DNA from: a virus
Length of the DNA: 64,000 bases
Virus record (IMG/VR): IMGVR_UViG_3300021962_000058
Span: 1-64,000 of that record
Strand: one strand, 5' to 3'
Shown here: positions 3,096 through 35,200 of the stretch, piece after piece
How positions within the stretch are numbered: position 1 is the stretch's first letter
How the letters are laid out: each line of letters starts with the position of its first letter
The notes under the pieces: model-generated
Told to the model about the DNA's origin: nothing
Seen by the model: only the letters and a program-made list of their open reading frames with translations
Database searches by the model: none
Program-made: the position numbers and the translations under genes

Positions 3096-3299
3096 ATGAA
3101 CTTTCTACTGCCATTATGGTATAAGTTTCAAGAGTGGAGATATGAAAGAAAATGTCTCAAACATCTTGGTATAAAACCCACAAAGATGTATGTAAGTAAA
3201 GAAGCATATGATGCTCTTATAGAAGCAATCAATAAACCACCAGAATATAACGAAAAGATTGCTAGATTATTAAGTCGTAAAGCACCTTGGGATGATTAA
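3096..3299 (+). CDS. hypothetical phage protein
   Basis: 67-aa ORF directly downstream of promoter. Confidence 0.65.
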   Translation: MNFLLPLWYKFQEWRYERKCLKHLGIKPTKMYVSKEAYDALIEAINKPPEYNEKIARLLSRKAPWDD

Positions 3300-11701: not shown

Positions 11702-12271
11702 ATGATTGATTCCAGAAAAGTAGCATATTCTAGTGGTGGTGGAGATGAAGCATATACCCCTGCATATGGTGTAACTCCTATTCTCAAATACATCCCCAAA
11801 GATGCAAAGGTGTGGTGTCCATTTGATACCAAAGAGAGTGAGTTTGTCAAGCAGATTGGAGCACAAAATCTAGTCGTCTCCACACACATTTCAACTGGTC
11901 AAGATTTTCTTACTTACATTCCCGACTTTGAGTGGGATGTGATTGTATCTAATCCACCATTCACAAACAAGCGGAAGTTCTTTGAGCGGGCACTGTCTTT
12001 CAACAAACCATTTGCCCTGATTATGACTAACACCTGGTTGAATGATAGTGCTCCTAAGCAATTATTCAAGGATAAGGATCTACAACTGTTGATGTTTGAT
12101 AAGCGAATGAAGTTTCATAGTCCTGATGGACGCCCGAATGATAAGATCACGTTCAGTAGTAGTTACTACTGCTGGAACTTTCTACCAAAACAAATCATTA
12201 TGGAGAAACTGGATGTGCCAGCTTCCAAACTGGCACAACGCAGTCCAAGTGAGGCAGTGCTGCCCCTATAA
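11702..12271 (+). CDS. DNA amino-methyltransferase (N6-A/N4-C)
   Basis: DEAYTP, WCPFD, GQDF and catalytic SNPPF motifs. Confidence 0.85.
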   Translation: MIDSRKVAYSSGGGDEAYTPAYGVTPILKYIPKDAKVWCPFDTKESEFVKQIGAQNLVVSTHISTGQDFLTYIPDFEWDVIVSNPPFTNKRKFFERALSFNKPFALIMTNTWLNDSAPKQLFKDKDLQLLMFDKRMKFHSPDGRPNDKITFSSSYYCWNFLPKQIIMEKLDVPASKLAQRSPSEAVLPL

Positions 12272-14962: not shown

Positions 14963-15233
14963 ATTTCCACACACTGCACCACAAGGTTATTCTTATGAAT
15001 TCGTTCAGTTCAAAACTCATGTTATTGCAGTGTGGATTCATAATCATTACAGGTTTGTTTACAATGGTGGTGGCATCACTCGTAGTATCTGGGGATTCTA
15101 CAACACAAAGACAAAGTGCTACCACTCTCCTATCAACGCCAAGACAGTCGGTGATCAAGTAAAGATCGAACAAACAACTCCTTACTCTGCAATGATTATC
15201 AAACGTACACCATTAGAACTTGCGTATGTATAA
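14952..15233 (+). CDS. hypothetical phage protein
   Basis: 93-aa ORF. Confidence 0.7.
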   Translation: MTIEFPHTAPQGYSYEFVQFKTHVIAVWIHNHYRFVYNGGGITRSIWGFYNTKTKCYHSPINAKTVGDQVKIEQTTPYSAMIIKRTPLELAYV

Positions 15234-15480
15234 ACCAAGACTGAATGATTATGTCAAGTGGACAAAGGGTGTTGAGGGTTGGGTTTACTTCGTGGATCAA
15301 GAGTATATTACGATTGAGACAATGGTAGTGCCCAAAGATCCAATTAACATCGAACATTGTTCATTGCACAAGAATCATCGTCTTTTGGTTATTTGTTATC
15401 AGGAACAATGGAAAGAGTTGAATCAGATTGGGTATCGTACTGATAAGTATTCAGAGTCCATTATTCCCAAAGAGTTATGA
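15226..15480 (+). CDS. hypothetical phage protein
   Basis: ORF, ATG 15226. Confidence 0.7.
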   Translation: MYKPRLNDYVKWTKGVEGWVYFVDQEYITIETMVVPKDPINIEHCSLHKNHRLLVICYQEQWKELNQIGYRTDKYSESIIPKEL

Positions 15481-15728
15481 AGCATAGGAAAACAGTATGG
15501 CGTTTATGGGCAAAGGCAATCGGTGAAAAGGCAAGTAAAGATGACAGAGAATCAGATCACATTGCTCATATACGCACTGTTATATTTCTCACTTATCTCA
15601 TTACTAACGTATTCATTGTTGCAGGCGTAATTCGACATTGGAATGACAATCAAAATGAAATACCAGGTTGTATACTACAAATTGAAGAAGGACAACAAGA
15701 AAGCGAAACAAGAAGCAATTTTCTATAA
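15477..15728 (+). CDS. membrane-associated hypothetical protein
   Basis: WRLWAKAIGEKAS...TM...IRHW; its tail overlaps a further small ORF 15655..15810. Confidence 0.65.
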   Translation: MKHRKTVWRLWAKAIGEKASKDDRESDHIAHIRTVIFLTYLITNVFIVAGVIRHWNDNQNEIPGCILQIEEGQQESETRSNFL

Positions 15729-15806
15729 CATTGAGGATGCTACATTATGGGAACAACACGTGAAGAAACAAGGTTACCTGAACTCAGAGATCGTACCACT
15801 GTTTCA

Positions 15807-16022
15807 ATGAAGAATAGAGTTATCTACTATCCTTCATTAATCCTAATCAGTATTGTATCGTTTGCGTTAGGATCAAATGTATACAGAGAGTCAATCATTA
15901 ATGATACTTTGAAACTGTGTAATCAAAAGCAATTAGAGTGTAAGTTCAAGTATGATATGGTGATGTATCAAGAGACAGGTAAAGTACCTTATACTCAACC
16001 TACTAAAGATAAAACCAAATAA
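15807..16022 (+). CDS. small membrane protein
   Basis: N-terminal TM helix; ATG 15807. Confidence 0.6.
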   Translation: MKNRVIYYPSLILISIVSFALGSNVYRESIINDTLKLCNQKQLECKFKYDMVMYQETGKVPYTQPTKDKTK

Positions 16023-16812
16023 AACCTTTCCAGGTATAGCGACCTTTACTTTTTAATGCTTTTGTAAGACCAGTTCCTCTACTATTACCACCAACTTTTC
16101 TAATAGCATCAGCAATACTCTCAAAGTGATATTCTTCCCAAGTTACTTTATTGATAGCTTTAACTGCTTTTTTCTTACTTTTAGTTTCAAGTAATTTCCA
16201 TCTGTAACCATAACACTTATATCCCTTACGAGCAGATAAAAGGATATTGCTATTTTTATTACGGTCACCAGCAACTTCTTCTGCTGCATCACGAGCATTA
16301 TCCCATTCTCTGATTTCACCAGTTTCTATATTCAGTCCTTGTATCTTTATACCACAGTGCTTACCGTTACCTCTATTTTCATCTGTTAAGAATCCCCATG
16401 GTTGATATTTCGCTTTTTCGGTTAAAGTAGTTTTTATATTATTAACCTCTTCATCTGTTCTTTCTCTATTAGATGCTATTTCACTTAATTTTTGTTTTGT
16501 TTCATTACTGAATACTGGACGACTTCCACCGCTTGTTGCATTATAACCTTCTGCACTTTCAAAGGTATTGTATTTTTCTATCCAGTATTGTTCTTTTTCA
16601 TCTAATAAACTTTCATCACATTCATCTATTTCTTTAATCATGAAGTTGTGATTACCATACTTACGCATAGCACGATGTAATGGTTTATCACTCATTCTTA
16701 ATGCTTCTTGTATGTGTTGTTGCCACCTTTTATTCATACCTTGGGTGGTCTGTCCAACATATTTGTGTCCGTTCTGTTTATTGACGATGAGATAGATGAT
16801 TCCTTGGGACAT
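16003..16812 (-). CDS. GIY-YIG homing endonuclease with NUMOD-type C-terminal DNA-binding repeats
   Basis: GIIYLI.N..NG.KYVGQT, R, H, E, GYN; two F/W.S..DA...KG..W repeats; the only long minus-strand gene. Confidence 0.88.
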   Translation of the reverse strand: MSQGIIYLIVNKQNGHKYVGQTTQGMNKRWQQHIQEALRMSDKPLHRAMRKYGNHNFMIKEIDECDESLLDEKEQYWIEKYNTFESAEGYNATSGGSRPVFSNETKQKLSEIASNRERTDEEVNNIKTTLTEKAKYQPWGFLTDENRGNGKHCGIKIQGLNIETGEIREWDNARDAAEEVAGDRNKNSNILLSARKGYKCYGYRWKLLETKSKKKAVKAINKVTWEEYHFESIADAIRKVGGNSRGTGLTKALKSKGRYTWKGFIWFYL

Positions 16813-16991
16813 TTATATTTTAGATAACACTTTTAATATTTTATATATTCTTTATGTTATTTTATATTATTATTTTGGTTAATTTGTGATTAAATATTTT
16901 GTAATTCTCAATAAGGTTTTGTAATTGATAATAAATAACAGGTTTTATTGAGAATAATAAGAAAATGCTGAGTCTTGTTGCAGCCTTTGCC

Positions 16992-17020
16992 AGCGTAGCA
17001 TAAGACACGCAGTTTGTCAA
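16992..17020 (-). promoter_or_regulatory. leftward sigma70 promoter
   Basis: Minus strand TTGACA-17-TACGCT with extended TG. Confidence 0.7.
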
Positions 17021-17060
17021 GTCCACCGCCCGCGAAAATGCCACGAGACCCACACAAAAA

Positions 17061-17345
17061 CTCGACGAGATCCATACTAGACTTATGAGATCTCGACGAG
17101 ACCTTATGTTACGAGATGCACATAATTCTCGACGAGAGTACATATATATTGGTATGATTCTCGACGAGACACACATCTAGACTAGATTGTATCTTGTCGA
17201 GTTTTATGGTATAATACGAAAGCGTTCACACAATCTCGACGAGCTTATGTACGACGATTACGATCTCGACTATACGTATAGTAACGATTATGTAGATCTC
17301 GACGAGGACACATACCACGAGTATGGTATAACGGATCTCGACGAG
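17061..17345. repeat. seven copies of CTCGACGAG (iteron-like array)
   Basis: Exact copies at 17061, 17092, 17128, 17160, 17235, 17298, 17337 plus partial copies. Confidence 0.9.
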
Positions 17346-17402
17346 GATTATGCACGAGATACACAAGATTATAACGATCTTGCGTATCGTCATTATGCAT
17401 GA
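17247..17402 (+). CDS. small Asp/Tyr-rich hypothetical protein
   Basis: MYDDYDLDY...; TGGTATAAT upstream at about 17207-17215; repeats encode DLDE. Confidence 0.5.
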   Translation: MYDDYDLDYTYSNDYVDLDEDTYHEYGITDLDEDYARDTQDYNDLAYRHYA

Positions 17403-17432
17403 TATAATCTAGACACATCGCACTAGACACGT

Positions 17433-17585
17433 ATGTTAGCACAGAAGCGCCTAGTCACAGTCACACTCGACATCATGTGTTATGATGACCTGGATCTAGA
17501 CAATATTAACTGGCGAGATGTATTAGATCTCGAACCCAATGAGGATGTCCATTGTAAGATCCAGGAGCACGATATCGATTGGTAG
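17433..17585 (+). CDS. small acidic hypothetical protein (50 aa)
   Basis: Hand-translated MLAQKRLVTVTLDIMCYDDLD...DIDW. Confidence 0.55.
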   Translation: MLAQKRLVTVTLDIMCYDDLDLDNINWRDVLDLEPNEDVHCKIQEHDIDW

Positions 17586-17609
17586 TGTGCCAGTTTAAAT
17601 ATTGGCACA
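17551..17609 (-). promoter_or_regulatory. leftward box-type promoter
   Basis: Box TGTGCCAGTT-TAAA-TATTGGCACA 17586-17609; minus-strand TACAAT (17551-17556) 29 nt away. Confidence 0.6.
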
Positions 17610-17663
17610 GTACTTCATTCTCAATAAGCAACCCCTTATTGAGAATTCTAATATTTCATAATA

Positions 17664-17727
17664 TTTCAAGGCAGGGGGAGTGGCGATGTATTTTCGTCGG
17701 CAGGGATACCCTTCCCCTCATTGAATT
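17664..17727 (-). ncRNA. candidate leftward non-coding RNA, copy A
   Basis: Follows minus-strand promoter; homologous to 22756-22820; no credible ORF. Confidence 0.5.
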
Positions 17728-17733
17728 TCTTAT

Positions 17734-17830
17734 AAGATAGCAGGCGGCCGACCCCAATTGCAAGGGGTCTTGTGCCAGTTCTTCTAGTGGCACAATGTTG
17801 CCCCAAAGCACCCTGATCGGGGTTTATGTT
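17734..17830. promoter_or_regulatory. bidirectional box-type promoter
   Basis: Box 17771-17794; rightward TATGTT at 30 nt; leftward TTGCAA-18-TATCTT with the -10 at 31 nt. Confidence 0.75.
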
Positions 17831-17854
17831 GGTTTCGTTCAACACAAAACCCCG

Positions 17855-18058
17855 ATGATTTTCATCACTTACCCCGATCACGGTTGTGTATACACTCTGT
17901 CGCAGGAAGATGGGGATGAGTTGTATTATGCTCCAATCTACCAGAACGGTAGTATTAATCTAGAAGAATTTGCACCCGTTGATTTAGATTCAGCAGACAT
18001 GGATCAGATGGAATTGTTTGACATTCGTAACCGCCTGGTGGAGATGTGCCAGATCTAG
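17855..18058 (+). CDS. hypothetical phage protein
   Basis: ATG 17855 follows promoter leader. Confidence 0.7.
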   Translation: MIFITYPDHGCVYTLSQEDGDELYYAPIYQNGSINLEEFAPVDLDSADMDQMELFDIRNRLVEMCQI

Positions 18059-18129
18059 AAGTGGCACACGGGCACTTTACAAGTGCCCTCATCCGTTCTA
18101 CATTACATTCGTTCCTGAGGGATTCACCA

Positions 18130-18258
18130 ATGTTTGATGAGATGTGGCAGGAGATTCAAGATGCTCCTGGTGAGATCTTTGACATTCCCGAACTTCGTGA
18201 TCTGGATGATGACAAGTTCGATTACAATGAGTACATTCTCTCCAACATTGATTACTGA
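18130..18258 (+). CDS. small acidic protein
   Basis: MFDEMWQEIQD...; ATG after promoter. Confidence 0.65.
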   Translation: MFDEMWQEIQDAPGEIFDIPELRDLDDDKFDYNEYILSNIDY

Positions 18259-18259
18259 A

Positions 18260-18409
18260 ATGACCACCACTTCGTTGACATTTGAAGAACTGGATGCCAT
18301 TCTGGCATTGATTGAGTTTCACGATGATTGGGATGAAGTGAGTGAGATCGTGGGGGCAGATGTTCCTGCCCTCTATGAGAAACTGTCCGAAATGCGTGAT
18401 GAGGTCTGA
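18260..18409 (+). CDS. small acidic protein
   Basis: MTTTSLTFEELDAIL... Confidence 0.65.
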   Translation: MTTTSLTFEELDAILALIEFHDDWDEVSEIVGADVPALYEKLSEMRDEV

Positions 18410-18678
18410 TGTACCGCACACTTTCTGAACTTCGTGACTCTATCAATTCAATGATTGAGAGTCAAGGTGAGAACGCTCCCTGTGCTGCATTTGTATTCAC
18501 CAAAGAAGATGTGTTTGAGTATGATGTAGATGACAATGAGGACAAGTATTTTCCTACTGTCTTCACAGAAGATGTGCTCTGTGATGTAGGTGGATCATCT
18601 TACATTTACGAACAGGTAGGTGAGATGATTGATGATGCAATCCGCCTTCGTAAGAAACTCCCACTCTACGCTAACTGA
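18409..18678 (+). CDS. acidic hypothetical protein
   Basis: 89-aa ORF, TGATG coupling. Confidence 0.7.
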   Translation: MYRTLSELRDSINSMIESQGENAPCAAFVFTKEDVFEYDVDDNEDKYFPTVFTEDVLCDVGGSSYIYEQVGEMIDDAIRLRKKLPLYAN

Positions 18679-18866
18679 TGATGAACCGCACTGAACTCCA
18701 GGATCAACTCATTCAGCAGATGTTGGATGACATGGATCTCAAAACAATGACCCAACTTTGTTATGATTATCTGGATGAGGGTTATGCAAAGTATTCTGAT
18801 GAAGAATTGACCGAAGAGGTTAATCAATACTATCCTGAACTGCTGGATGGTGTGACAGTCGACTAA
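18678..18866 (+). CDS. acidic hypothetical protein
   Basis: 62-aa ORF, TGATG coupling. Confidence 0.7.
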   Translation: MMNRTELQDQLIQQMLDDMDLKTMTQLCYDYLDEGYAKYSDEELTEEVNQYYPELLDGVTVD

Positions 18867-18935
18867 GTGGCACAAGGGGGGTTGCAATGCCCCCTGATCT
18901 GGTCCATACTACTCAAGTCAACGCAACCGACCCCA

Positions 18936-19283
18936 ATGCGTAAGATCGAACAGCAAATGAACGCCGCCATTCGTGACTCCCGCGATTGGAAGTCTGGCAA
19001 CACTGAAGTTACTTTTGACTCTGAAACCAATGAGTCGAAAGTGTTCCTGCATGGCAACCACATTGCTACCATCGGTGATGACTTCGTGCAAATCTTTGAT
19101 GGTGGTTGGCAGTCTAACACCACCAAATCCCGCCTGAACGCTATTCTTCAAGATCACGGAATCAAGGGCGAATGTGTATTCCAGCGCAACTGGAATTGGT
19201 TCGTTCATAAGTTCATCGGGCAGGCAGGAACTTCTCCTGTGTTCAACGAACTCGAGTTCACCAACGGATTCGTGTTCGCCTGA
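18936..19283 (+). CDS. conserved phage hypothetical protein
   Basis: MRKIEQQM...V.LHGNHIA...GGWQS.TTKSRLNA; ATG after promoter leader. Confidence 0.8.
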   Translation: MRKIEQQMNAAIRDSRDWKSGNTEVTFDSETNESKVFLHGNHIATIGDDFVQIFDGGWQSNTTKSRLNAILQDHGIKGECVFQRNWNWFVHKFIGQAGTSPVFNELEFTNGFVFA

Positions 19284-19353
19284 CGAACTGGCACATCGGG
19301 TGCCCACACGGCACCCTCACCCCCTATACTACATTCGTTCACACAAAACACCA

Positions 19354-19920
19354 ATGGAAACCTTCCTCGAGACTTCCTTCCAGAACGTTCGTTCTTCCAA
19401 GCGTACTGATGAGTTTCATAAAGTTCTGCTGGATGAGATTCTGAACGCAAATCCTTCGTGGGCAGAGTATGATTGGAAGTTTGAGTATCAACTTCCCGTA
19501 GATGGTTTTGGTGGTACATTTGACATTGACATTGCTGGGTTTAGTAATGGTGAACTTAAGGTTGCTATTCTTGGCAAAGCACTCAACAGCAACATTAACA
19601 AAAACATCAAAAACTACGCTAACACTAGTGTAGGTGAAGCAGCACGTTTGATGTTCGCTCCTGACATTGAGATGGAAAAAGTGCTGTTCGTGAGTGTTCT
19701 TCCCCGTGTGGCACCACGTTTCAACAAAGCGGGTGAAGTTCAGGGTTTCGATGATGTCGTGAGTGCCAAAGAGCGTACCAAGATTAACCACGTTCTGCAA
19801 GCACAATACGATGGTATTGTTGAGGCAATCGACCTGTACTTTGACATTGAAGGTGTAAAGACTCTGCAAGAGTTCAACACCATTAGCATCAACAATCTGG
19901 ACACTCTGACTCTGGTGTGA
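19354..19920 (+). CDS. restriction-endonuclease-like (PD-(D/E)XK fold) protein
   Basis: FDIDIA...VAILGK...N..N.....GEA pattern; ATG after promoter leader. Confidence 0.45.
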   Translation: METFLETSFQNVRSSKRTDEFHKVLLDEILNANPSWAEYDWKFEYQLPVDGFGGTFDIDIAGFSNGELKVAILGKALNSNINKNIKNYANTSVGEAARLMFAPDIEMEKVLFVSVLPRVAPRFNKAGEVQGFDDVVSAKERTKINHVLQAQYDGIVEAIDLYFDIEGVKTLQEFNTISINNLDTLTLV

Positions 19921-20001
19921 CAGTCTGACAAGTGGAACACGGGGGGTTGAGTTCCCCCCTTCTTCGTGCCATACTACGTTCATCAGCAAACAACCCGACC
20001 A

Positions 20002-20250
20002 ATGCAACTCTACATCCTCAAAGAAGTTCTTTACGATTACACTGACGGAATGGCAGTTATCGCTGCTGAATCTATGCCTCAGTGTGAACAGATCTTTATG
20101 GAAGAGTTTGGGTATTTCACTGATCGTAATGGTGAACGGGTGAAGGATGAAAAGGTACAAAAAGAGTTCAACAATGCTAAGGTTACTATCATCGAAAGCG
20201 TAGGACTTGATGAGGCAGGTATTGTAGAATACGTTTACGGTGGGGGTTGA
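20002..20250 (+). CDS. hypothetical phage protein
   Basis: MQLYIL...YVYGGG; ATG after promoter leader. Confidence 0.75.
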   Translation: MQLYILKEVLYDYTDGMAVIAAESMPQCEQIFMEEFGYFTDRNGERVKDEKVQKEFNNAKVTIIESVGLDEAGIVEYVYGGG

Positions 20251-20893
20251 TAATGACACCATCTACCCGTGCAATCGTAACCACAAGAATGGCAACTCAC
20301 ACACAGAATACGCCAGTCAATTCTGAAGCATTTCGTGCTAATGAAACTGATACGATTGGACTGGTAGTTGTTCTCAGTGGTCTTGCTGTTATTTGTCTCT
20401 TCTCTGCTCTGATTGACTGATGACTGATTTTGTTTCTGAATCCGAAGTGAAGCAAATGATGCTCATTGAGGCACTTGAGTATTACATTCAAGGATTGAAA
20501 GATGATAATTGTAATCAGGCAGCGATTGATGCCTTCACCGACCTTTTGACTGAGATTGAGAATGACTAACGAACAAAAGATCCAAGCACTACCCACAATC
20601 CGTACCTTCCCATATACGATTGGTCTCCGTACATACTTCTCGGAAGAAGAATATCAAAAAGCACTCCACGATTTCCTGACTTGGAGAAACCATCAACAGA
20701 GCAAAAGGAACCGCACTAATGATGACTGACACAGACAAAGTAGAAGCACTGAGTGACCTTCTCTCTAATGTCATTCACTCTCTGGAGATGACAAAATATC
20801 TTATTGATGATGCAGATAAAGCATCATCGGTCGTTCGTGAAGCAGACAAGTTTCACCAACAAATGCTGAACATTCTTTACCCTGACGCCTGAA

Positions 20894-21223
20894 ATGATTA
20901 CCGCAACTGAACTGCTGGACTTTCTCACCAAAGCACAAAAAGTTTCTCCTTGTGGAGCAACCTTTCGTCAAACTGATGAAGGTTATAAAATCACTCTGTA
21001 TTGTGATTGGCACGATGATGGCAATAACTATAAACAATCTATTTTCATTGACAACGAAGGTGAATCCACTTGGAATAATGGAGGAGACTATGATTTCTAC
21101 ACAATGGATAACATTTTGGATGAAATGCTTGTGAAACAACAAGAGAAAGAAATCAAAGCACAAAAGCGTAAAGAACTGATTGAATCTCTCACACCAGAGC
21201 AAAGAGAACTGCTGGGGGTGTGA
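20894..21223 (+). CDS. hypothetical phage protein
   Basis: 109 aa, ends LTPEQRELLGV; several sub-60-aa ORFs fill 20253-20890. Confidence 0.75.
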   Translation: MITATELLDFLTKAQKVSPCGATFRQTDEGYKITLYCDWHDDGNNYKQSIFIDNEGESTWNNGGDYDFYTMDNILDEMLVKQQEKEIKAQKRKELIESLTPEQRELLGV

Positions 21224-21301
21224 CAGTTGACCTAGTGGCACACACCCCCTTGTGCTGCCTTCCCATTCGTGCCATACTACGTTCATCAGCAAACAACCAC
21301 G

Positions 21302-22201
21302 ATGCAAAACAAGCACCAAGAGCACCCCGAAGATACCATCCTCACGGGTGATTTGACCGTGCTCGACTGGTTCGTGACACCTGGCACCCTGAGCGTTAAG
21401 ATTGACGGAGCACCCGCAATCGTGTGGGGGATTGATCCTGCGACTGGTACGTTCTTCGTGGGTACAAAAGCAGTATTCAACAAAAAGAAGATTCGTATTG
21501 CACACTCTCACGATGAGATTGACCAACACTATGAAGGCAACGTTGCAGACATTCTGCACACTTGCTTTGACATTCTGCCCCGTACTGAGACAATCTATCA
21601 GGCAGAGTTCATCGGGTTTGGTGGATCTGATGAGTACACTTCCAACCTGATTACGTATCAGTTCCCTGAGATTGTCACTCAAACTATTATCATCGCTCCG
21701 CATACTTGCTATTATGCTGAGAATGATCTGCGTGAGGCAGTAGCGTATCCTGATCGTGCAACTTGGAATGATACTGAAACGGTCAAGTTTGTGAAACCTG
21801 ATGCCTACATTCTGCACGGTCAAGAATCGTTCGCTGATGTAGAAGAAGTGTGCAACTTTGCCCGCCAGATGGCAACCACCTGCCAGTTCGTTTCTAACAC
21901 CGAAGCGGCAAAGATTAAAGTTGCCATTAACGCTTGCATCCGTGAGCAACGTGAGATCGAAGATGATGCATTTGGATGTGATCCTAACCTGATTCGTTTG
22001 TGGAAACTGGTTAAATCTATCAAAGAGGATTGCCTATTCCTGTGCCGCAACAATGGTCCCGCAGCATACATCAAACAGGACCGAATTGATGCGGAAGGTT
22101 ACACAATGACCAATGAGTTTGGTATGTTCAAACTGGTGAAGCGTGAAGTGTTCTCCTACCACAACTTCACCAGCGGACGCTTTCAGTGTACCAGTGCCTG
22201 A
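21302..22201 (+). CDS. conserved T4-like phage protein with ligase/nucleotidyltransferase-like motifs
   Basis: KIDG, YQAEF, EGY and KLVK motifs; ATG 21302 after promoter leader. Confidence 0.65.
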   Translation: MQNKHQEHPEDTILTGDLTVLDWFVTPGTLSVKIDGAPAIVWGIDPATGTFFVGTKAVFNKKKIRIAHSHDEIDQHYEGNVADILHTCFDILPRTETIYQAEFIGFGGSDEYTSNLITYQFPEIVTQTIIIAPHTCYYAENDLREAVAYPDRATWNDTETVKFVKPDAYILHGQESFADVEEVCNFARQMATTCQFVSNTEAAKIKVAINACIREQREIEDDAFGCDPNLIRLWKLVKSIKEDCLFLCRNNGPAAYIKQDRIDAEGYTMTNEFGMFKLVKREVFSYHNFTSGRFQCTSA

Positions 22202-22270
22202 ACCGTCCACCTGAACCCGCAGGGGGGCACTGCTGCCCCCTATACTGATCTCAGTTCACAAGCGAACCCA

Positions 22271-22468
22271 ATGCCTAACACCGCTACCCTGATTGCCATC
22301 GGTGAAATGATCGTTAATGCATCTGAGACGTTGCCTGCAACCACCAATGCAAACATCCGCATTATGCAGGGTGAGAAGTGTGGCGCTGAGATTCTACGTC
22401 TGATCGTTCGTGATAACTTAGGTGGCGCTGCCAATGTTATCACCAATGCCCTTTGGGTCACTCGCTGA
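22271..22468 (+). CDS. hypothetical cassette protein
   Basis: 65 aa between two promoter repeats. Confidence 0.7.
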   Translation: MPNTATLIAIGEMIVNASETLPATTNANIRIMQGEKCGAEILRLIVRDNLGGAANVITNALWVTR

Positions 22469-22535
22469 ACTGGCACAGGGGGGACTGAGATCCCCCCACC
22501 AACCCCCTATACTGACTTCAGTTCAAACGAAACCA

Positions 22536-22697
22536 ATGCAACGCCTTGACGTGATTTGCCCCTCCGCTCCTTGGGAGAACACTACCACCGATGAGGATCG
22601 TGCCTGGGATCTGTGCCTGTCACTCTCTGAGGAATACGGTTACGCTCAGGTTCGCCAGAACGGTATGATCATCGGTGACTACACTGACGGTCGCTGA
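22536..22697 (+). CDS. hypothetical cassette protein
   Basis: MQRLDVICP...; ATG after leader. Confidence 0.7.
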   Translation: MQRLDVICPSAPWENTTTDEDRAWDLCLSLSEEYGYAQVRQNGMIIGDYTDGR

Positions 22698-22704
22698 ATG
22701 ATAC

Positions 22705-22736
22705 AAAAGGGGGAGCACATACGCTCCCTTTTTTTA
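22705..22736. terminator. bidirectional intrinsic terminator
   Basis: AAAAGGGGGAGC-ACATAC-GCTCCCTTTTTTT. Confidence 0.75.
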
Positions 22737-22755
22737 TACTTTTTCTTTTTTTTTA

Positions 22756-22820
22756 TTTCAAGGCTGCCCCCGTGACGACCTTTTTCGTCATCAGGGCTAC
22801 CCCGCCCCTCCTTCGCTTGT
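22756..22820 (-). ncRNA. candidate leftward non-coding RNA, copy B
   Basis: Follows minus-strand TATACT (22827-22832); homologous to 17664-17727. Confidence 0.5.
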
Positions 22821-22826
22821 GACCTT

Positions 22827-22922
22827 AGTATAAGGCCGCGGCAACCCCATACAACCCCCAGTGTGCCACTTTCTGAACTGGCACCCTACCCCCACCATCC
22901 TGCCCACTGCTGCCTCTATACT
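22827..22922. promoter_or_regulatory. bidirectional box-type promoter
   Basis: Box 22862-22885; TATACT 31 nt to the right and 29 nt to the left (minus strand). Confidence 0.8.
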
Positions 22923-22944
22923 GATCTCATCAGCAACGGACCCC

Positions 22945-23124
22945 GTGCAGACCCTCAAAGCAACCGCCATCGCCCTGCTAGTCATCACACTGGCAACCGC
23001 TGGTTACTTTGCTCTGCTTCGCAATGGCAATGCCCGCATCGAAGCGAAGTGCCAGGCATCAGGTGGGCAGGTGCTTGTGACACCTGGTCAAGTGTCCAAA
23101 TGCCTCCTGCCCGCTGCCCGCTGA
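22945..23124 (+). CDS. small membrane/secreted cassette protein
   Basis: GTG start after leader; TM helix followed by C...GG...C. Confidence 0.6.
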   Translation: MQTLKATAIALLVITLATAGYFALLRNGNARIEAKCQASGGQVLVTPGQVSKCLLPAAR

Positions 23125-23157
23125 CCCCTTATACTGATCTCAGTTCACACAACACCG

Positions 23158-23322
23158 ATGAGCACCGCAACCCGCCTCACCGCAAACCAGGCAAAGAGCG
23201 CCATCTACGATCTGGCGGATGACTTCTCATGGGAAACCGTTGCTAAGGAGATGGTCGCCCGCATGAGTGGTGATGAGGCACGGGACTTCCTCGAGGACTT
23301 CCAGCGCCTCTATGCCGACTGA
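23158..23322 (+). CDS. hypothetical cassette protein (54 aa)
   Basis: Hand-translated MSTATRLTANQAKSAIYDLADDF... Confidence 0.7.
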   Translation: MSTATRLTANQAKSAIYDLADDFSWETVAKEMVARMSGDEARDFLEDFQRLYAD

Positions 23323-23393
23323 GGCACTGGCACAAGGGGGGCACAGACCCCCCACCCCGACCCGCTACAATACTCTCACACGCAACCGATCCG

Positions 23394-23567
23394 ATGCGAA
23401 TCGAAGTCCGTTACCAGACCCCCTACAACGCTTGTGAGTGGCGGTCGCAGTGGTTCCCCACGCTGGCAGAGGCAGAGCGTATGGTAGAGTTCTACCGCTC
23501 CTGCGGATCGCCCTCTCACATCGCCCCCAGCAGCATGGCACAGTTCGCTCACCTGATTCCCGACTGA
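23394..23567 (+). CDS. hypothetical cassette protein (57 aa)
   Basis: Hand-translated MRIEVRYQTPY...F.TLAEAERMV.FY; followed by coupled ORFs 23567..23653 and 23650..23817. Confidence 0.7.
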   Translation: MRIEVRYQTPYNACEWRSQWFPTLAEAERMVEFYRSCGSPSHIAPSSMAQFAHLIPD

Positions 23568-23851
23568 TGATCACCGCAGCATTCTTCCTGATCGGTTACA
23601 CTATGGGAGCAGGGCACATCCTGCTCCTGCAACGTATCCTCCGCCACCGATGATCAACACCCTGACCCGCTCACGATCCCCTGAGTTTCACCGCGCCACA
23701 ATGCTCCGCCTGACAATCGCCGCGCTGCTACTCTGGGGGTTCTGGGGTCCACTGTACCCCGTCCGTAGTGTGACAGCAGACGTACTGTCCACTACCGCCG
23801 ACCTCCTGCGTCGCTGACCCCTTATACTGATCTCAGTTCACAAGCGAACCG

Positions 23852-24040
23852 ATGACCCGCACCAACGTCCTGCCCAACGACCTCTGCTCCATCACCCTGA
23901 CTGAGGCACAGTGGAGCACCATCCGCACCGCCGTGCTCTGCCTGGCAGTCGATTGCCGCGTTGCTGGTAAGGGTGCTGACGCAGACTACTACCTGAACGC
24001 CTACAACATCCTGCGGGATGCGATGGGGATGGACGCCTGA
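23852..24040 (+). CDS. hypothetical cassette protein
   Basis: 62 aa between repeats. Confidence 0.7.
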   Translation: MTRTNVLPNDLCSITLTEAQWSTIRTAVLCLAVDCRVAGKGADADYYLNAYNILRDAMGMDA

Positions 24041-24114
24041 GGCACTGGCACACGGGGGGTTCCACCCCCCTACCCTGACCCCTTATACTGATCTCAGTTC
24101 ACACCCGAACCCCA

Positions 24115-24543
24115 ATGACCGTCACTCTCACCGCTTCCTACCGCGACATGCTTGCCGCTGACACTGTAAGCAAGATCGACGAACTCCAGGAGGAGAACTA
24201 CTCCCTGGAGGACATGCTGGAGTTCATTGATACCTACAATGAGAATGATTTTATCGCATACTATGAGGAGTATGTGCGTTGTGGTGAAGCAATCGGTTAC
24301 GATGCTGTTGATGCTCTGATCGATGAAATGGGGTGCGTTTCTGACATTGAAGATTGTGATGAGCGTTTCCAAGGTTGGTATGAAAGTGAGGCAGATTTCG
24401 CTGAGCAGTTCTACTCTGATCTCTACGATGTCCCCTGTGCTCTGGTGATAGATTGGCAGGCAACCTACGATTCCTCCCTGCGTTACGATTTCACCTGCTG
24501 CGAGAAGTCCTACCGTCAGGTGGCAGTGTTTCGGGACTGCTGA
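24115..24543 (+). CDS. ardA: ArdA-like antirestriction (DNA mimic) protein
   Basis: Highly acidic; FQGWYESEADFAEQ...P....IDWQ....SL..DF matches the ArdA C-terminal pattern. Confidence 0.7.
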   Translation: MTVTLTASYRDMLAADTVSKIDELQEENYSLEDMLEFIDTYNENDFIAYYEEYVRCGEAIGYDAVDALIDEMGCVSDIEDCDERFQGWYESEADFAEQFYSDLYDVPCALVIDWQATYDSSLRYDFTCCEKSYRQVAVFRDC

Positions 24544-24629
24544 GGGACAGTTGAGGGGGTGGCACACTGCTGCCCCCACTGCCCCCACTCCTGCCCTTAT
24601 ACTGATCTCAGTTCACACCCGAACCACCA

Positions 24630-24890
24630 ATGGCAACCGCAACCTACCAGACCAACCTCACCGACCGCACCTACAACGGTTGGACTAACTACGAAACCTG
24701 GAACGTTGTGCTCTGGATTGAGAATGATGAGAGCATCTACAACTTCATTCAAGAGAATGACATTTGCTGCTATGAAGAACTGCTGGAAGCATTCTATGAT
24801 CACGGCAGCATTCAGACCCCTGATGGTGTGATGTGGAACGACCCTAAGATCAACCGCGCTGAGATCAACGGCGACGTGTTCGATTCCTAA
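24630..24890 (+). CDS. conserved phage hypothetical protein
   Basis: YNGWTNYETWNV.LWI.N.E motif. Confidence 0.75.
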   Translation: MATATYQTNLTDRTYNGWTNYETWNVVLWIENDESIYNFIQENDICCYEELLEAFYDHGSIQTPDGVMWNDPKINRAEINGDVFDS

Positions 24891-24958
24891 ACTGGCACAA
24901 GGGGGGCACCAACCCCCCATCCTGACCCCTTATACTGATCTCAGTTCAAACGAAACCG

Positions 24959-25129
24959 ATGACCGCTGACCTTGCTGCCTCCCTGCTCAACCGTGCCGCT
25001 AACGGTGCCGAACTGCTGAGCATCCTGGATACGATCGCCAACGACATTGCAGACGCCAACATCGCTGACTGCGCCGCCCATTATGCTCGCATCAGTGCCC
25101 AACCTACCCTGAGCGAAGTCCAGTTCTGA
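24959..25129 (+). CDS. hypothetical cassette protein (56 aa)
   Basis: Hand-translated MTADLAASLLNRAANGAELLSILD... Confidence 0.7.
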   Translation: MTADLAASLLNRAANGAELLSILDTIANDIADANIADCAAHYARISAQPTLSEVQF

Positions 25130-25198
25130 TAGTGGCACAACGGAGGGGGATGACCCTTCCCTTTTGCCTCTATACTGATCTCAGTTCAAACGACCACT

Positions 25199-25405
25199 AT
25201 GTGCCCAATCGACGCCTTTGAGATCCACCTGCAACTGTGTGAGGATCTCTACGATCTGGCAAACGCCATCGCCGCTGAGATGTATGGTTGCGATCTGCAC
25301 CGCCTGGACCCCTCTGAGATCGAATGGTACAATGAGCGGGTGACCGCCGACAATCTGGAGGAGATGGCAAACGACCTTGCCGCTGCCGCTTGGCAGTCCT
25401 ACTGA
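25199..25405 (+). CDS. acidic cassette protein
   Basis: 68 aa between repeats. Confidence 0.7.
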   Translation: MCPIDAFEIHLQLCEDLYDLANAIAAEMYGCDLHRLDPSEIEWYNERVTADNLEEMANDLAAAAWQSY

Positions 25406-25442
25406 TCTGCTACAATACTCTCAGTTCACAAGCAACCGACCC

Positions 25443-25613
25443 GTGTTCATCACCAACGACACTGCTGCCAACGACCCCGCCTGCCAGGCAGCGATGAAAG
25501 CATACGCCGCCCAACTCAAGCGGGAGGAGGAGCGCCGCCAGCAGATCCTGGCAGGCACCTACATCCCCTGCCCTGTCCAATCTACGGTCTGGCACATCAG
25601 CGACCGCGACTGA
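25443..25613 (+). CDS. hypothetical cassette protein
   Basis: GTG start after leader. Confidence 0.6.
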   Translation: MFITNDTAANDPACQAAMKAYAAQLKREEERRQQILAGTYIPCPVQSTVWHISDRD

Positions 25614-25655
25614 CCCCACCGACCGACTAGGATACTCTCAGTTCAAACGAAACCA

Positions 25656-25841
25656 ATGACCACCACTCAGAACCTCCGCTCCCTGATCGCTCACACCCTG
25701 ACTGAGATCGACCGTGAGTTTCACGGTTGGACCTTTACCGCTGATGACTTCGCTGGTGAGTCGATCCACGATCTGCGGGAGTTCTGCTACCGCCACCACT
25801 CCCCCATCGTTCGGGCACTGCCCACGACGGTGATGATCTGA
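25656..25841 (+). CDS. hypothetical cassette protein
   Basis: 61 aa between repeats. Confidence 0.7.
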   Translation: MTTTQNLRSLIAHTLTEIDREFHGWTFTADDFAGESIHDLREFCYRHHSPIVRALPTTVMI

Positions 25842-25894
25842 GGGGTCCGCCCCTTTATCTGCTACAATACTCTCAGTTCACAAGCAACCGACCG

Positions 25895-26095
25895 ATGACC
25901 CGCCCCAACCTGGAAACCGAACTGATCAACGCCCTGAATGATCTCACCCCAGCAGAGCGCCAGGCATTGGCCGCGGCAACCCCTGCCGACTGGGCTGAGG
26001 CAGGTGCTGAAGTTCTGAATGACCCCACCTTCTGGGGTGAGATCGCTGCCGCTTTTGCTGAGGGTTTCACACGCGGTTTTGAGAATCGCCGCTGA
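25895..26095 (+). CDS. hypothetical cassette protein
   Basis: 66 aa between repeats. Confidence 0.7.
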   Translation: MTRPNLETELINALNDLTPAERQALAAATPADWAEAGAEVLNDPTFWGEIAAAFAEGFTRGFENRR

Positions 26096-26146
26096 TCTGA
26101 CCCGCTGATCTGCTACAATACTCTCAGTTCAAACGACCCCAGACCG

Positions 26147-26347
26147 ATGACCGAAGCATACGCGATCTTCACCACTGGCACCGACTACTACGACCGCCCC
26201 GAACTGTTCGGACTCTATGTTTCCGCTGAGAAGGCAGAGGCAGAGGCAGCGGTGCTCCGCGAGCGCCTGGAGGATCCCGACTGTGCAGAATTCGAAGGGC
26301 AGCGCCTCTACGATCAGGTGACCGTGACCTACGTTCCGATCCGCTGA
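26147..26347 (+). CDS. hypothetical cassette protein
   Basis: 66 aa between repeats. Confidence 0.7.
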   Translation: MTEAYAIFTTGTDYYDRPELFGLYVSAEKAEAEAAVLRERLEDPDCAEFEGQRLYDQVTVTYVPIR

Positions 26348-26415
26348 GATCCGATGGGGGGTTGACCGATCGCCCCCCTACCCTCTACAATTCTCTCAGT
26401 TCACAACCCGAACCG

Positions 26416-26604
26416 ATGAACGACACCTTCGCTCAGATCCTCTGGAACGCCACCAACCCTGAGACTGGTACGATCCGATTCTCCACCGCCGCTCAGGCAG
26501 CAAAGGAACATGGTCTGTGGGATGACTTCCGCAGCGACTATGCCACCCTCTCTCAGTTCGGCGGTGTTGATACTGGTGAGTTCCTGGAGTGGTTGGGGTA
26601 TTGA
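26416..26604 (+). CDS. hypothetical cassette protein
   Basis: ATG after TTGACC-18-TACAAT promoter. Confidence 0.7.
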   Translation: MNDTFAQILWNATNPETGTIRFSTAAQAAKEHGLWDDFRSDYATLSQFGGVDTGEFLEWLGY

Positions 26605-26654
26605 CCCCTGCCCCCTGATGCCTTACAATTCTCTCAGTTCACACCCCACCGATC

Positions 26655-26840
26655 ATGGCAATCTACTCCGCCTGCTCCAACCTTGAAACCCGCGAAACCA
26701 TGTGGGTTGCACGCAAGACTGATGACGCCCCCCAGTACACGTTCGCTGGTCAGATCAACCCCGTAGAGGGTTGGTGGTTGGCAGGTGTCTCCGCCGATCG
26801 CTACGCTTCGGACGTGGTGGCACCCCAGTGGGAGGGGTGA
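26655..26840 (+). CDS. hypothetical cassette protein
   Basis: ATG after TTGACC-17-TACAAT promoter (26601-26629). Confidence 0.7.
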   Translation: MAIYSACSNLETRETMWVARKTDDAPQYTFAGQINPVEGWWLAGVSADRYASDVVAPQWEG

Positions 26841-26928
26841 CCCCCCATCCTAGCACACGGGCAGTGGGTGCGTGGGATGCAGGTCCCCCGCCGCCCGCCC
26901 CGTGCGGTCGCGGCGCGTGATGGGGGGT
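26840..26928. other. very GC-rich fold-back element closing the cassette array
   Basis: ACCCCCCATC pairs with GATGGGGGGT, enclosing about 70 nt of GC-rich non-coding sequence. Confidence 0.55.
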
Positions 26929-27079
26929 TGTTATAAAAACCCCTAACTACCCTAACCTACAAAGTGTTACGGACGCGAGAGAAATATCAGACTCATTAAA
27001 CATCGAAAATCAAAAAATTTTTCGCCAATAAAAAGTTCTCATAAGGTTGATATATAAAAAATAAAAAAATATCAAAAGA

Positions 27080-27250
27080 ATGAGAAAAAAATCCGGAGAA
27101 GAAAAACGCCCCATAGAAGTCGATCCGATCAGTGGGGAGTATTCGATTAAACTACCAGAATGGATGGTCAATGAGCTTTCGTGGTACGAGGATACTGAGA
27201 TTACGTTTACCTTAGAGGGTAGTGAACTTATACTTTCAGAATCCGAATGA
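27080..27250 (+). CDS. AbrB/MazE-like small DNA-binding protein (56 aa)
   Basis: Hand-translated IEVDPISGEYSIKLPEWMVNELSWYEDTEITFTLEGSELILS. Confidence 0.65.
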   Translation: MRKKSGEEKRPIEVDPISGEYSIKLPEWMVNELSWYEDTEITFTLEGSELILSESE

Positions 27251-32204: not shown

Positions 32205-35200
32205 ATGTCGAATTTTGAGAAGAGAGTACAAATCAATAAAATTATTGAGAGTCAACTTCCAGAATTTTTAGTTTCTGATTTTCCAAAGGCAGTAGAATTT
32301 TTAAGACAATACTACATTTCTGAGGAATTTCAAGGTGGTAATGTAGATCTTGCTGATAACCTAGATCAGTACCTGAAACTTGATAATCTAGTTCCAGAAG
32401 TTATTGTAGGCGAAACAAAACTAACTTCTAATATTTCAGCATCTGCTGGAATTGTTACTGTTACATCAACAAAAGGATTTCCATCTGAGTATGGACTTCT
32501 GAAAATCGATAATGAAATTATTACCTACACTGGTATAACCACAAATACTTTTACTGGTTGTATTCGTGGATTTAGTGGAGTTACTGGATATAATTATCTG
32601 TCTAAGTTTGATATAGATGATGGATCAAACAAAAAATCTTTGGTATTTGAGGACACTGATTCTTCGAGTCATACATCTGGATCTACCGTTAAGAATCTAA
32701 GTGTTTTATTCTTACAAGAATTTTACAAGAAGTTAAAATATACCTTTACGCCAGGACTAGAAAATAATGATTTTGTTTCCGATTTAGATGTAGGAAATTT
32801 TATTAAACATGCAAGAGATTTTTACCAGTCAAAAGGAATTGAAGAATCGGTAAAAATTCTGTTTAAAGTTCTTTATGGTGTAAATGCGGATGTCATCGAC
32901 TTAGAAAGTAGATTAATTAAACCATCATCTGCAAACTACATACGCAGAGAAATCGTTACTGCTAAAAATATTTCTGGCGATCCCCTCAAATTAGAAGGAC
33001 AAACTATATTCAAGTCTAGTGATATCAATACAAATGCTGCGGTATCAAACGTAGAAATTTTAACAAGAGATAATGAAACTTTCTATAAATTAGAACTTTT
33101 TGTCGGATATGATGAAAAAGATTTAATTAATGGAACTTTCACAGTTCCTGGAAAAACAAAAGTACTTGAAAATGTTTCAATTGGATCTTCAATAATTTCA
33201 GTCGATTCAACCATTGGTTTCTCAGAGTCTGGAACTTTAAACTTAATTAGTAGTGGAAACTCTATAAAGTATACTTCGAAATCAGTCAATCAGTTCTTTG
33301 GATGTTCTGGAGTTGTTTCATTAATTCCTCTTGGATCTGATCTCAGATCTGATGAAACAATATATGGTTATGAAAATGGAAATATCAACAAAAGAGTTGA
33401 TCTAAGAATTACTGGTGTTATTTCTGATCTTGTATCTGTTGATGATAGTTTATTAATAGATGAGGGTGAAGAGATTTTAGTAAGAAATCTTGGAAATATT
33501 ATTGAAAATCCACCAAATGGAGAAAAAACATATAAAGAAGTATTTGCAAATACTTGGATCTACAACACAAGTACTAGATATCAAGTAAGATCTATTGTAG
33601 GGTCAACTTTCACATTATACAGTTATATTGATAAATCTAGTCTTAGTGTAGGTGATAATGTTGATATTTTAGTCAGATCTAGTAATACAGTTGTTTTTAG
33701 TAATGCAACAGTAACTAGTATCAATACTGCTGTAAATCAAATTATTTTAAGTGGAATAACTGGATTTACTCCCCAACCTCTGGTTGAATATGATATAAGA
33801 AGAAAAATAAAGAAATCTAGTAGTTTAAACGTAAATATTGATGCTGGAAATAATTCTTATATTTCAAATGTACTGAATCTATATACCGACAAAGAATATG
33901 GATATGTTGTTTCCAATTCTTTACCATCATATCAAATTAATGACGAATTAATTGAATCTTCCATACCAAATGGTTCTACATTGTATCTTTCTGGTTCAAA
34001 TGATGATCGTAAAGCATACTCTAGTATAAAATTTCCACAAAATGTTAGATTCATTGATGGAGATATTGTAATATATACTTCTTCTCAACCTTTGAATGGG
34101 TTAACTTCTGGATCAAAATATTATGTAAGATTACTTCAACCCAATGAGATAAGATTATATGAATCAAGATCACTATTGGATGCGGTAAACTTAACTGATA
34201 TCAGTGGAAACGTTATAGTTCCATATCTATTTTTTGGAAATACACAGAGTTTAAATACATCCAGTCACAGATTTACATTAGCAAAGCAAGAAAATAGAAA
34301 TATATCAGCAAATAAAATATTAAGAAAGTTTCCACTACAATCCACAAAAATTAATAATAGTGAACCAGTAAAAAGATCTATTGAAACAATTTCTGGTGGA
34401 ATAGGAGTTTTAATCGACGGTGTTGAAATTACAAATCCAGAATCAATAGAAAAAATATATTATGGACCACTAAAACAATTTGACGTTCTTAATAGTGGAA
34501 ATAATTATGATATTGTCAATCCTCCCAAAATTGTAATATCAACGGGTGCTGGCACAACCGCTTTGGTTGAACCAGTAATCAATGGAAATGTTAAAAATGT
34601 TTTTGTTGATGTTCAAGATTTTGATGTTGATGATGTTGTATCAATATCTTTAACAGGAGCAAATGGATCTGGTTGTATTTTAGAACCAGTCATAGGTGAA
34701 AGGTTTAGAGAAGTTGAATTTGATAGTAGGTCACTTAATGTAGGTGGTGGAGTAGATATTAGTGATGAGACTATTACATTTTTGAAACCACATAATTTTT
34801 ATGATGGCGAACCTATCATTTATAATCAGAATGGAAATCCTGCAATATTGACAGGAAGTTTCCAAGATATATCAAATACTGTAACTGGATCATTGGTCAC
34901 TAATGACCAATACATTGCAAAATTTGTTAACACAAGAACGATTAGACTTTTTAACAACATAAATGATTTTAATGCTGGAATTAATACTGTTGGATTCTCA
35001 ACATTAACTACATTCGGAGGAATTCATAAATTTAGAACTTTACCTAGAAGGACACTAAGATCGGTAAAAGTTTTAAATGGAGGATCCGGATACACTTATA
35101 GGAAATTAAGAGTCAAACCAACTGGAATATCCACAGATTATAGTACTGTTAATTATGAAAACCATGGATTTTCTACAGGAGAAGTCATCCACTATTCGAC

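Follow-up and report, generated by a model that had tools for sequence, protein, structure and literature searches.

A conserved array of palindromic sites in and around an early promoter and a very small gene of T4-like cyanophages

The locus and its palindromic sites

The IMG/VR virus record IMGVR_UViG_3300021962_000058 (91,149 bases) comes from a T4-like cyanophage, with a Kyanoviridae Gp96 domain at 18867–19283. We analyzed its first 64 kb (hereafter, the window), in which the + strand carries nearly all genes and the GC skew climbs monotonically. The subject of this report is a control region in which an array of short palindromic sites lies within and on both sides of a strong early promoter and runs into a very small gene, orfA, which is followed by a second one, orfB (Table 1). 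The nearest named relative for this locus is the Synechococcus phage S-SRM01. The array keeps its place in relatives, selection acts on its nucleotides, and we tentatively read it as a set of operator-like sites. Neither gene product (50–51 aa) matched a Pfam family or a known fold. orfA equals PSSM2_098 of phage P-SSM2, where the array, at approximately 65,990–66,250 of that phage's record, also precedes the gene, and it is unannotated in S-SRM01; the public homologues of orfB comprise 1651 sequence clusters, every one of them unnamed. The two genes were always neighbours, and both proteins are conserved with in-frame indels (more than 70 unique sequences in the case of orfA).

The palindrome CTCGACGAG occurred in seven exact copies, all on the + strand (starting at 17061, 17092, 17128, 17160, 17235, 17298, and 17337, with start-to-start distances of 31, 36, 32, 75, 63, and 39 nt), against a mean of 0.10 copies in shuffled sequence. 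A preliminary description of this DNA, made from the letters alone, had given the same number, orientation, and spacing, together with an inverted near-copy at 17193, and all of these were reproduced. It had not noticed the motif elsewhere in the window, and our count found no copy outside 17061–17345 across the entire record. Both long gaps contain degenerate copies, CTAGACTAG and, at 17265 within orfA, CTCGACTAT, and the real site spacing is therefore approximately 29–42 nt. The longer form of the site, ATCTCG-A-CGAGAT, consists of two inverted WCGAGAT half-sites with the central base pair in common, and this dyad symmetry (ATCTCG-W-CGAGAT) suits a dimeric binder. Across 221 instances from 45 low-GC contigs, collected by a pattern scan of IMG/VR, the extended motif was rATCTCGACGAGa; the central base in relatives was A in 193 cases, T in 33, and G or C in none. 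Half-sites were present at 5.2 per kb in the control regions versus 0.12 per kb elsewhere, an approximately 40-fold difference.

A full-text literature search with the motif and with cyanophage promoter and origin terms returned no phage paper describing the array, nor is the array mentioned in the paper on the S-SRM01 genome. Rfam gave no family in the window or in 16500–18500 (E-value up to 1), and megablast against phage records gave nothing beyond one 36-nt match. Prokaryotic genomes with two spaced copies were only high-GC, largely coding chance matches, with no cyanobacterium among the matches listed, and they thus offered no lead toward a host regulon. A restriction or methylation site was considered and rejected, because TCGA shows only mild depletion and the genome as a whole neither avoids the motif nor is enriched in it.

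Table 1. Features of the array locus and of the candidate binder gene (window coordinates)
Feature	Position	Strand	Remarks
GIY-YIG homing endonuclease gene	16003–16812	−	269 aa; Pfam GIY-YIG, E-value 1.6e−11; PHROG homing endonuclease
AT-richest 150-nt tract of the window	16811–16960		86% A+T; leader/upstream region of the endonuclease cassette
Left bracket, inverted repeat on TTCTCAATAA	16899–16960		Arms 16899–16914 and 16945–16960
Leftward sigma70-type promoter	16992–17020	−	−35 TTGACA 17020–17015; −10 TACGCT 16997–16992; 17-nt spacer
Lone half-sites ACGAGA	17043–17048 (+), 17111–17116, 17354–17359		
Four exact upstream sites	17061–17168	+	At 17061, 17092, 17128, and 17160; 31–36 nt apart
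Promoter-like TCGACG-N18-TATGAT	17129–17158	+	Extended −10; overlaps site 3; weaker than the main promoter
Degenerate palindromic site CTAGACTAG	17177–17185	+	
Early sigma70 promoter of orfA–orfB	17187–17215	+	−35 TTGTAT 17187–17192; −10 TATAAT 17210–17215; extended −10 TG 17207–17208; in 65/69 relatives
Inverted near-copy of the site	17193–17201		In the upstream half of the −35/−10 spacer
Leader site	17235–17243	+	Ends 3 nt ahead of the orfA start codon
orfA	17247–17402	+	51 aa, very acidic; N-terminus MYDDYD, C-terminus LAYRHYA
orfB	17433–17585	+	50 aa, acidic; phrog_12516
TGTGCCA-N10-TGGCACA box copy	17586–17609	+	Different, window-wide promoter-associated palindrome
Right bracket, 12-bp hairpin with TTCTCAATAA arms	17617–17646	+	T-rich tail; terminator-like
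AbrB/MazE/SpoVT-like candidate gene	27080–27250	+	56 aa; phrog_661; end of the GC-richer early island

Promoters and conservation in relatives

The array contains a conserved rightward promoter, which had been overlooked in the preliminary description. Promoter geometry was counted over 69 unique upstream regions of relatives: TTGNNN-N17/18-TANNNT was found at one fixed place in 65 of them, usually with TTGCAT or TTGCAA as the −35 and TACAAT or TATAAT as the −10 element, and with an extended −10 in 59. A site begins directly after the −35 hexamer, that is, within the spacer, in 64 of the 69 and occurs there in both orientations, and the final site stops 2–4 nt ahead of the orfA ATG in 60. The spacer is also occupied in the window, so that sites overlap the core promoter, and the leader site lies at approximately +17 from the predicted transcription start. 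A leftward promoter, TTGACA-N17-TAnnnT, was conserved in approximately 60 of 68 unique relatives. Of three leftward promoters named earlier, only the one at about 17020 is supported by this conservation; for those at 17556 and 17739, the analysis covered a consensus scan.

A sample independent of the motif was collected by scanning IMG/VR with the orfB protein only, which yielded 517 contigs, of which 80 were kept. Exact copies lay within 400 nt upstream of orfB in 78 of these 80; the array therefore holds its syntenic position, a check that had been proposed when the array was first noted. Measured from the orfA ATG, the site centres hold constant positions of −181, −147, −114, −82, −49, −8, +55/58, and approximately +91, and the distances between sites cluster at 31–33, 42, 21, and 60–66 nt. 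These positions are fixed to the nucleotide with respect to the promoter and the start codon, although orfA is only 40–100% identical. The named phages with the array are S-SRM01, S-SKS1, S-T4, P-SSM2, and P-SSM5. S-SRM01 carries 11 copies in 240 kb, all of them in three arrays inside one 5.5-kb early region; the second array repeats the geometry described above at an unrelated, box-type promoter, which its sites flank, with only 6 nt between the final site and an ATG, and the third array is abutted by an HNH gene.

Selection on the nucleotides of the array

The last copies had been described as embedded in a small ORF as DLDE, which is correct, with ATG 17247 rather than TTG 17187 as the start. 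Relatives have two or three sites within orfA per locus; in the window, these lie at 17265 (degenerate), 17298, and 17337, and the three translate as (D)LDE or DLDY. The repeats could on this ground be taken as the mere DNA image of a repeated peptide, but at least five copies lie outside any conserved ORF. Furthermore, where a conserved DLDE peptide with synonymous drift would have spoken against a DNA element, the reverse was found. In the LDE stretches of orfA, the codons were CTC in 112, GAC in 116, and GAG in 117 of 125 cases (90–94%), whereas the same residues elsewhere in orfA used CTC, GAC, and GAG in 37%, 33%, and 47%, respectively. One relative (L200) keeps orfA and orfB and has no palindrome at all; in their place, it carries lone ACGAGATC half-sites, 13 or more in number, in the corresponding spacer, leader, and in-gene positions. 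Its orfA peptide is altered to accommodate these half-sites, and the leftover LDE, where the site has moved, is spelled by other codons. S-SKS1, which belongs to a different genus, likewise has at least nine lone half-sites, ACGAGATAC, instead of palindromes. The fixed codons and L200 together exclude the peptide-repeat reading, to which we give practically no credence. These results indicate that selection acts on the nucleotides of the array and, because the site type changed in concert while the positions were retained, that the sequence has a trans-acting reader.

This reader could in principle act on RNA, either as an RNA-binding protein or nuclease that recognizes the sense motif or through copies that pair into processing structures. 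The sense-strand bias is strong (ACGAGA in the control regions, 281 on the + and 49 on the − strand), nearly every relative has a copy directly beside the start codon, and the single strand of the array folds far better than shuffled sequences (z of −5.5 and −4.5). Metatranscriptome contigs spanning orfA and orfB point weakly in the same direction; however, these contigs from RNA runs are short, come from relatives, carry neither strand nor end information, and may reflect DNA carry-over. The fold score is a trivial outcome of repeated palindromes, and the invariant motif allows no covariation. Dyad symmetry would be useless to an RNA motif, and the best-conserved site lies in the spacer, which is not transcribed from that promoter, and occurs there in either orientation. 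Together with the A/T-only centre, these two properties argue for recognition of DNA rather than RNA, and an RNA-level element is in our judgment unlikely.

Boundaries of the module

The 10-mer TTCTCAATAA occurs four times in the 64 kb, as the inverted pair at 16905/16945 and in the right hairpin, all flanking the module formed by the array and the two genes. Because these arms recur solely on the other side of the module, the module is bracketed. The right hairpin looks like a terminator that ends the orfA–orfB unit. A conserved, G/C-rich, structured-looking element without an Rfam family lies 3′ of it, at 17670–17720 (6030–6080 in the relative L008), and is common to S-SRM01.

Brackets of identical hairpins that are unique in the window would also fit a repeat without a function of its own in the cell, selfish or prone to recombination, the boundary of a cassette, or a homing-endonuclease hot spot that has spread through the hyperplastic early region. 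A homing endonuclease adjoins in half of the relatives: the GIY-YIG gene (cluster C14) was present in 21 of 41 unique loci, as a mobile insertion that adjoins the control region. The HNH gene beside the third S-SRM01 array and an orfA–orfB-like pair that is inverted in phage DSL-LC03 can be read in the same way. In contrast, the positions of the sites are fixed to the nucleotide across relatives with widely differing orfA proteins, the codons are held in place, and in L200 the motif was replaced in concert with its positions kept. A selfish repeat is in our judgment unlikely, slightly more so than an RNA-level element. In DSL-LC03, the array is absent; its weak orfB-like gene (L347 9761–10147) lies with an upstream partner on the strand opposite to all neighbours, and an annotated AbrB/MazE/SpoVT gene is located 4 kb away.

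The adjoining AT-rich tract and the question of a replication origin

The long AT-rich stretch that had been noted to the left of the array was confirmed, with 16811–16960 as the richest 150 nt of the window. At this place, relatives have a different and equally AT-rich sequence, and in 26 of 30 loci the AT maximum falls 200–800 nt ahead of the orfA start codon. The sequence of the tract in the window belongs to the GIY-YIG cassette, so that its composition is conserved and its sequence is not; a near-identical relative, L131, lacks the cassette, with homology breaking at approximately 16990. Compared with L131, 16003–16990 is a clean presence/absence polymorphism, and its right breakpoint falls within the −10 element of the leftward promoter.

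The preliminary description had proposed that the array is the replication origin or another nucleoprotein assembly site. The latter is well supported, as the array is palindromic, phased, constrained, and kept in position; for the origin, the evidence is mixed. An origin is a possible reading that we rank second. The sites would serve as iterons on which a site-binding protein, with host DnaA in some relatives, assembles, and divergent early transcription would open or prime the AT tract, as at T4 oriE/oriF or ori-lambda; such a function may coexist with promoter control. The conserved leftward promoter is directed into the local AT maximum (26 of 30 relatives), the adjoining tract is the AT-richest of the window, and the phasing of the sites (approximately 32, 42, and 21 bp) is regular and near-helical, as expected of iterons. 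An initiator gene beside the repeats was not found: a Pfam screen of 81 early-region ORFs revealed no replication-initiator family, and the acidic orfA and orfB proteins, which have no fold match, showed no similarity to RepEA (no BLASTP alignment for orfA). The GC-skew and coding-strand profiles of the whole record and of S-SRM01 were monotonic, with no origin signal; because the genome is transcribed one way, GC skew carries no origin information. The AT-tract sequence is cassette-specific, the sites are locked to the −35/−10 spacer and the leader of the rightward sigma70 promoter, and the three arrays of S-SRM01 within 5.5 kb suit a local regulon better than three origins.

DnaA boxes bear on the origin in both directions. 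None (up to one mismatch) was found at 14971–21999 of the window, whereas clusters of two to five DnaA-type boxes (TTTTCCACA or TTATCCACA) lie right at the AT maximum in 11 of the 68 relatives, and in S-SKS1 three of the nine boxes in 208 kb fall within 50 bp (record positions 151414–151464). However, most of the clusters in relatives are linked to the endonuclease, as they sit in GIY-YIG-bearing loci, upstream of that gene's late-type promoter (TATAAATA). The clusters in L092, L054, L110, L023, L193, L099, L124, and S-SKS1 are located 310–500 nt upstream of orfA, and some boxes abut. Relatives also have tandem repeats of approximately 20 nt, each with the late-promoter-like word TATAAA(T/C), at 250–400 nt upstream of orfA; these repeats (for example, in L009 at 2410–2520, L054, and L124) separate the DnaA boxes from the leftward promoter, and their sequence is lineage-specific.

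The origin reading has precedents. Palindromic iterons lie within a gene at ori-lambda (lambda O), and an in-gene iteron origin is also found in SPP1 gene 38. The cyanophage array resembles these in its palindromic, near-helical repeats, located partly in coding sequence beside an AT tract, and would share with them the activation by nearby transcription; unlike them, its host gene encodes a 51-aa acidic peptide and not an initiator that binds the repeats. At T4 oriE, iterons are likewise found together with an early promoter and a pair of ORFs of about 50 aa; what the iterons do there is itself unproven (PMC3016281). The cyanophage locus shares with it an iterated short motif, an early host-type promoter, two ORFs of about 50 aa (repEA/repEB in T4), and syntenic conservation of the array in relatives. 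The two differ in that the T4 iterons, which run antisense within gene 5, are direct repeats of 12 nt, whereas the cyanophage sites are palindromic and belong to a promoter of an early-gene island, at another genomic position, and orfA does not resemble RepEA. A repeat-finder search of the T4 record for the oriE iterons, run for a side-by-side comparison, gave nothing useful.

A proposed operator-like docking array and its candidate binder

The reading that we place first, ahead of the origin and not exclusive of it, is that the array is an operator-like docking set for a dimeric DNA-binding protein; we hold it tentatively, as the most plausible of several. We infer that a sequence-specific, probably dimeric protein binds the WCGAGAT half-sites, which are paired in inverted orientation in most sites. 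Relative to the predicted transcription start of orfA–orfB, the sites lie at approximately +17, −24, −57, −89, −122, and −156, and, within orfA, at approximately +80 and +119. The spacer and +17 are classic repressor positions, and a putative protein at −24, beside the −35 element, and at +17 would exclude or trap the host RNA polymerase, with the phased sites that flank these positions lending cooperativity to the binding. On this view, the array would be a multi-operator that switches the immediate-early orfA–orfB unit, most probably by turning it off once the early phase is over, and the divergent leftward promoter would perhaps be switched together with it.

Well-known phage and plasmid operator arrays include lambda OR/OL (CI/Cro), the Arc/Mnt sites of P22, and parC of plasmid R1 (ParR). 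Like these, the cyanophage array has short dyad-symmetric sites, one of them in or beside the promoter core, phased neighbours that allow cooperativity, and divergent promoters under one control region. In contrast to these systems, it comprises 8–12 sites over approximately 300 bp, reaching +120 in coding sequence, its palindromes can be replaced by lone half-sites, its repressor is only a candidate, and the phage is lytic and T4-like, with no lysogeny module.

A Pfam screen of the 81 early-region ORFs revealed no clear DNA-binding domain. The protein encoded at 27080–27250 is a candidate for the array binder, which we offer as a lead and not as a finding. Its predicted model has a strand-strand-helix-strand-strand topology, and MazE, AbrB, SpoVT, C56, and C68 head its Foldseek list; PHROG placed it only in phrog_661, a family of unknown function, and its homologue in S-SRM01 carries the annotation of a DNA-binding domain protein. 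Proteins of the AbrB/MazE/SpoVT swapped-hairpin fold are dimeric DNA binders, some of them acidic (MazE), that bind to repeats or palindromes over the promoters they control; the candidate resembles them in its small size (about 50 aa), in the predicted topology of its model, and in its Foldseek ranking and differs from them in its weak fold scores and in having no Pfam match. The AbrB/MazE-like gene is rare in deposited phages (13 records), yet it lies 3–10 kb downstream of the array in the window, S-SRM01, S-SKS1, S-T4, P-SSM2 (as PSSM2_102), and P-SSM5. Conversely, in a scan led by the AbrB-like protein, all 10 unique contigs that extended at least 9 kb upstream carried the array.

Several observations weigh against the operator reading or against this candidate. 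Sites at +80 and +119 within the gene are unusual for a simple operator. Some secondary arrays of relatives are placed between convergent genes, or follow a stop codon and precede a terminator hairpin, and these are not places where an operator is expected. An origin would account equally well or better for the conserved leftward promoter, for the very high A+T content of the tract, and for the DnaA clusters of some relatives. As for the candidate, the model is of low confidence (pLDDT 63), the Foldseek E-values (0.3–2.5) and the VIA scores (Z up to 3.0) are weak, and Pfam gave no match, including to SpoVT/AbrB PF04014, at E-values up to 5. Phage Sf-CH8 has the AbrB-like gene without the array, and plain synteny could explain the co-occurrence of the two.

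Two other small proteins were considered. orfB was rejected as a ribbon-helix-helix or AbrB-like binder: its model has a pLDDT of 86 yet scarcely any secondary structure, neither Foldseek nor VIA gave a PDB match, only one of 52 homologues gave MazE (E-value 0.15), and its sequence does not follow the kind of site, as S-SKS1 and L101 have similar orfB proteins but different sites. The ORF at 3096–3296 (67 aa), which has a homologue in S-SRM01, showed a sub-threshold TacA-like (ribbon-helix-helix) match (E-value 9e−4; 19.6 bits versus a cut-off of 21) and is a second possible small DNA binder.

Other features of the window

Another palindrome, TGTGCCA-N10-TGGCACA, occurred in 13 copies (up to two mismatches), all on the + strand between 7904 and 23334 of the window, against 0.24 in shuffled sequences. 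Its copies (for example, at 12214, 17586, 17771, and 18045) precede small early genes, and it is probably the site of another regulator. A GC-rich island at 22000–27000 (52–60% G+C versus approximately 35% elsewhere) has a negative GC skew and few long ORFs and stops abruptly near 26.9 kb; S-SRM01 has a milder counterpart at 85–95 kb. ARAGORN called a tRNA-Cys at 26842–26927, which Rfam does not confirm. The record and S-SRM01 strongly avoid the words GGCC, CCGG, CATG, and AGCT (observed/expected 0.12–0.4), as well as GTCGAC and CTCGAG, which fits an escape from host restriction. The structural region contains two giant ORFs, at 32205–44708 (4167 aa) and 46296–54119 (2607 aa), which, judging from the gene order of P-SSM2 and S-T4, are probably baseplate (gp7-like) or fibre proteins.

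Significance of the array

To our knowledge, the MotA/AsiA middle-mode system of T4 is absent from T4-like cyanophages, and both the timing of their early genes and the start of their replication are largely unexplained. The array is a widespread and sharply defined cis-element, whose linked gene is encoded by 517 IMG/VR contigs, and it offers a clean case of a DNA signal that overrides the codon choice, and even the peptide sequence, of its host gene. Because it is present in P-SSM2, which can be cultured, and also in S-SRM01, S-SKS1, and S-T4, the questions of early timing and of the origin can be tested directly. There is a lesser chance that the control region is the first identified origin of a T4-like cyanophage, an iteron-like one fired by divergent host-type transcription into an AT tract. 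If so, the box clusters of some lineages would serve to recruit host DnaA, and the repeats of the origin would be written into the codons of a tiny gene.

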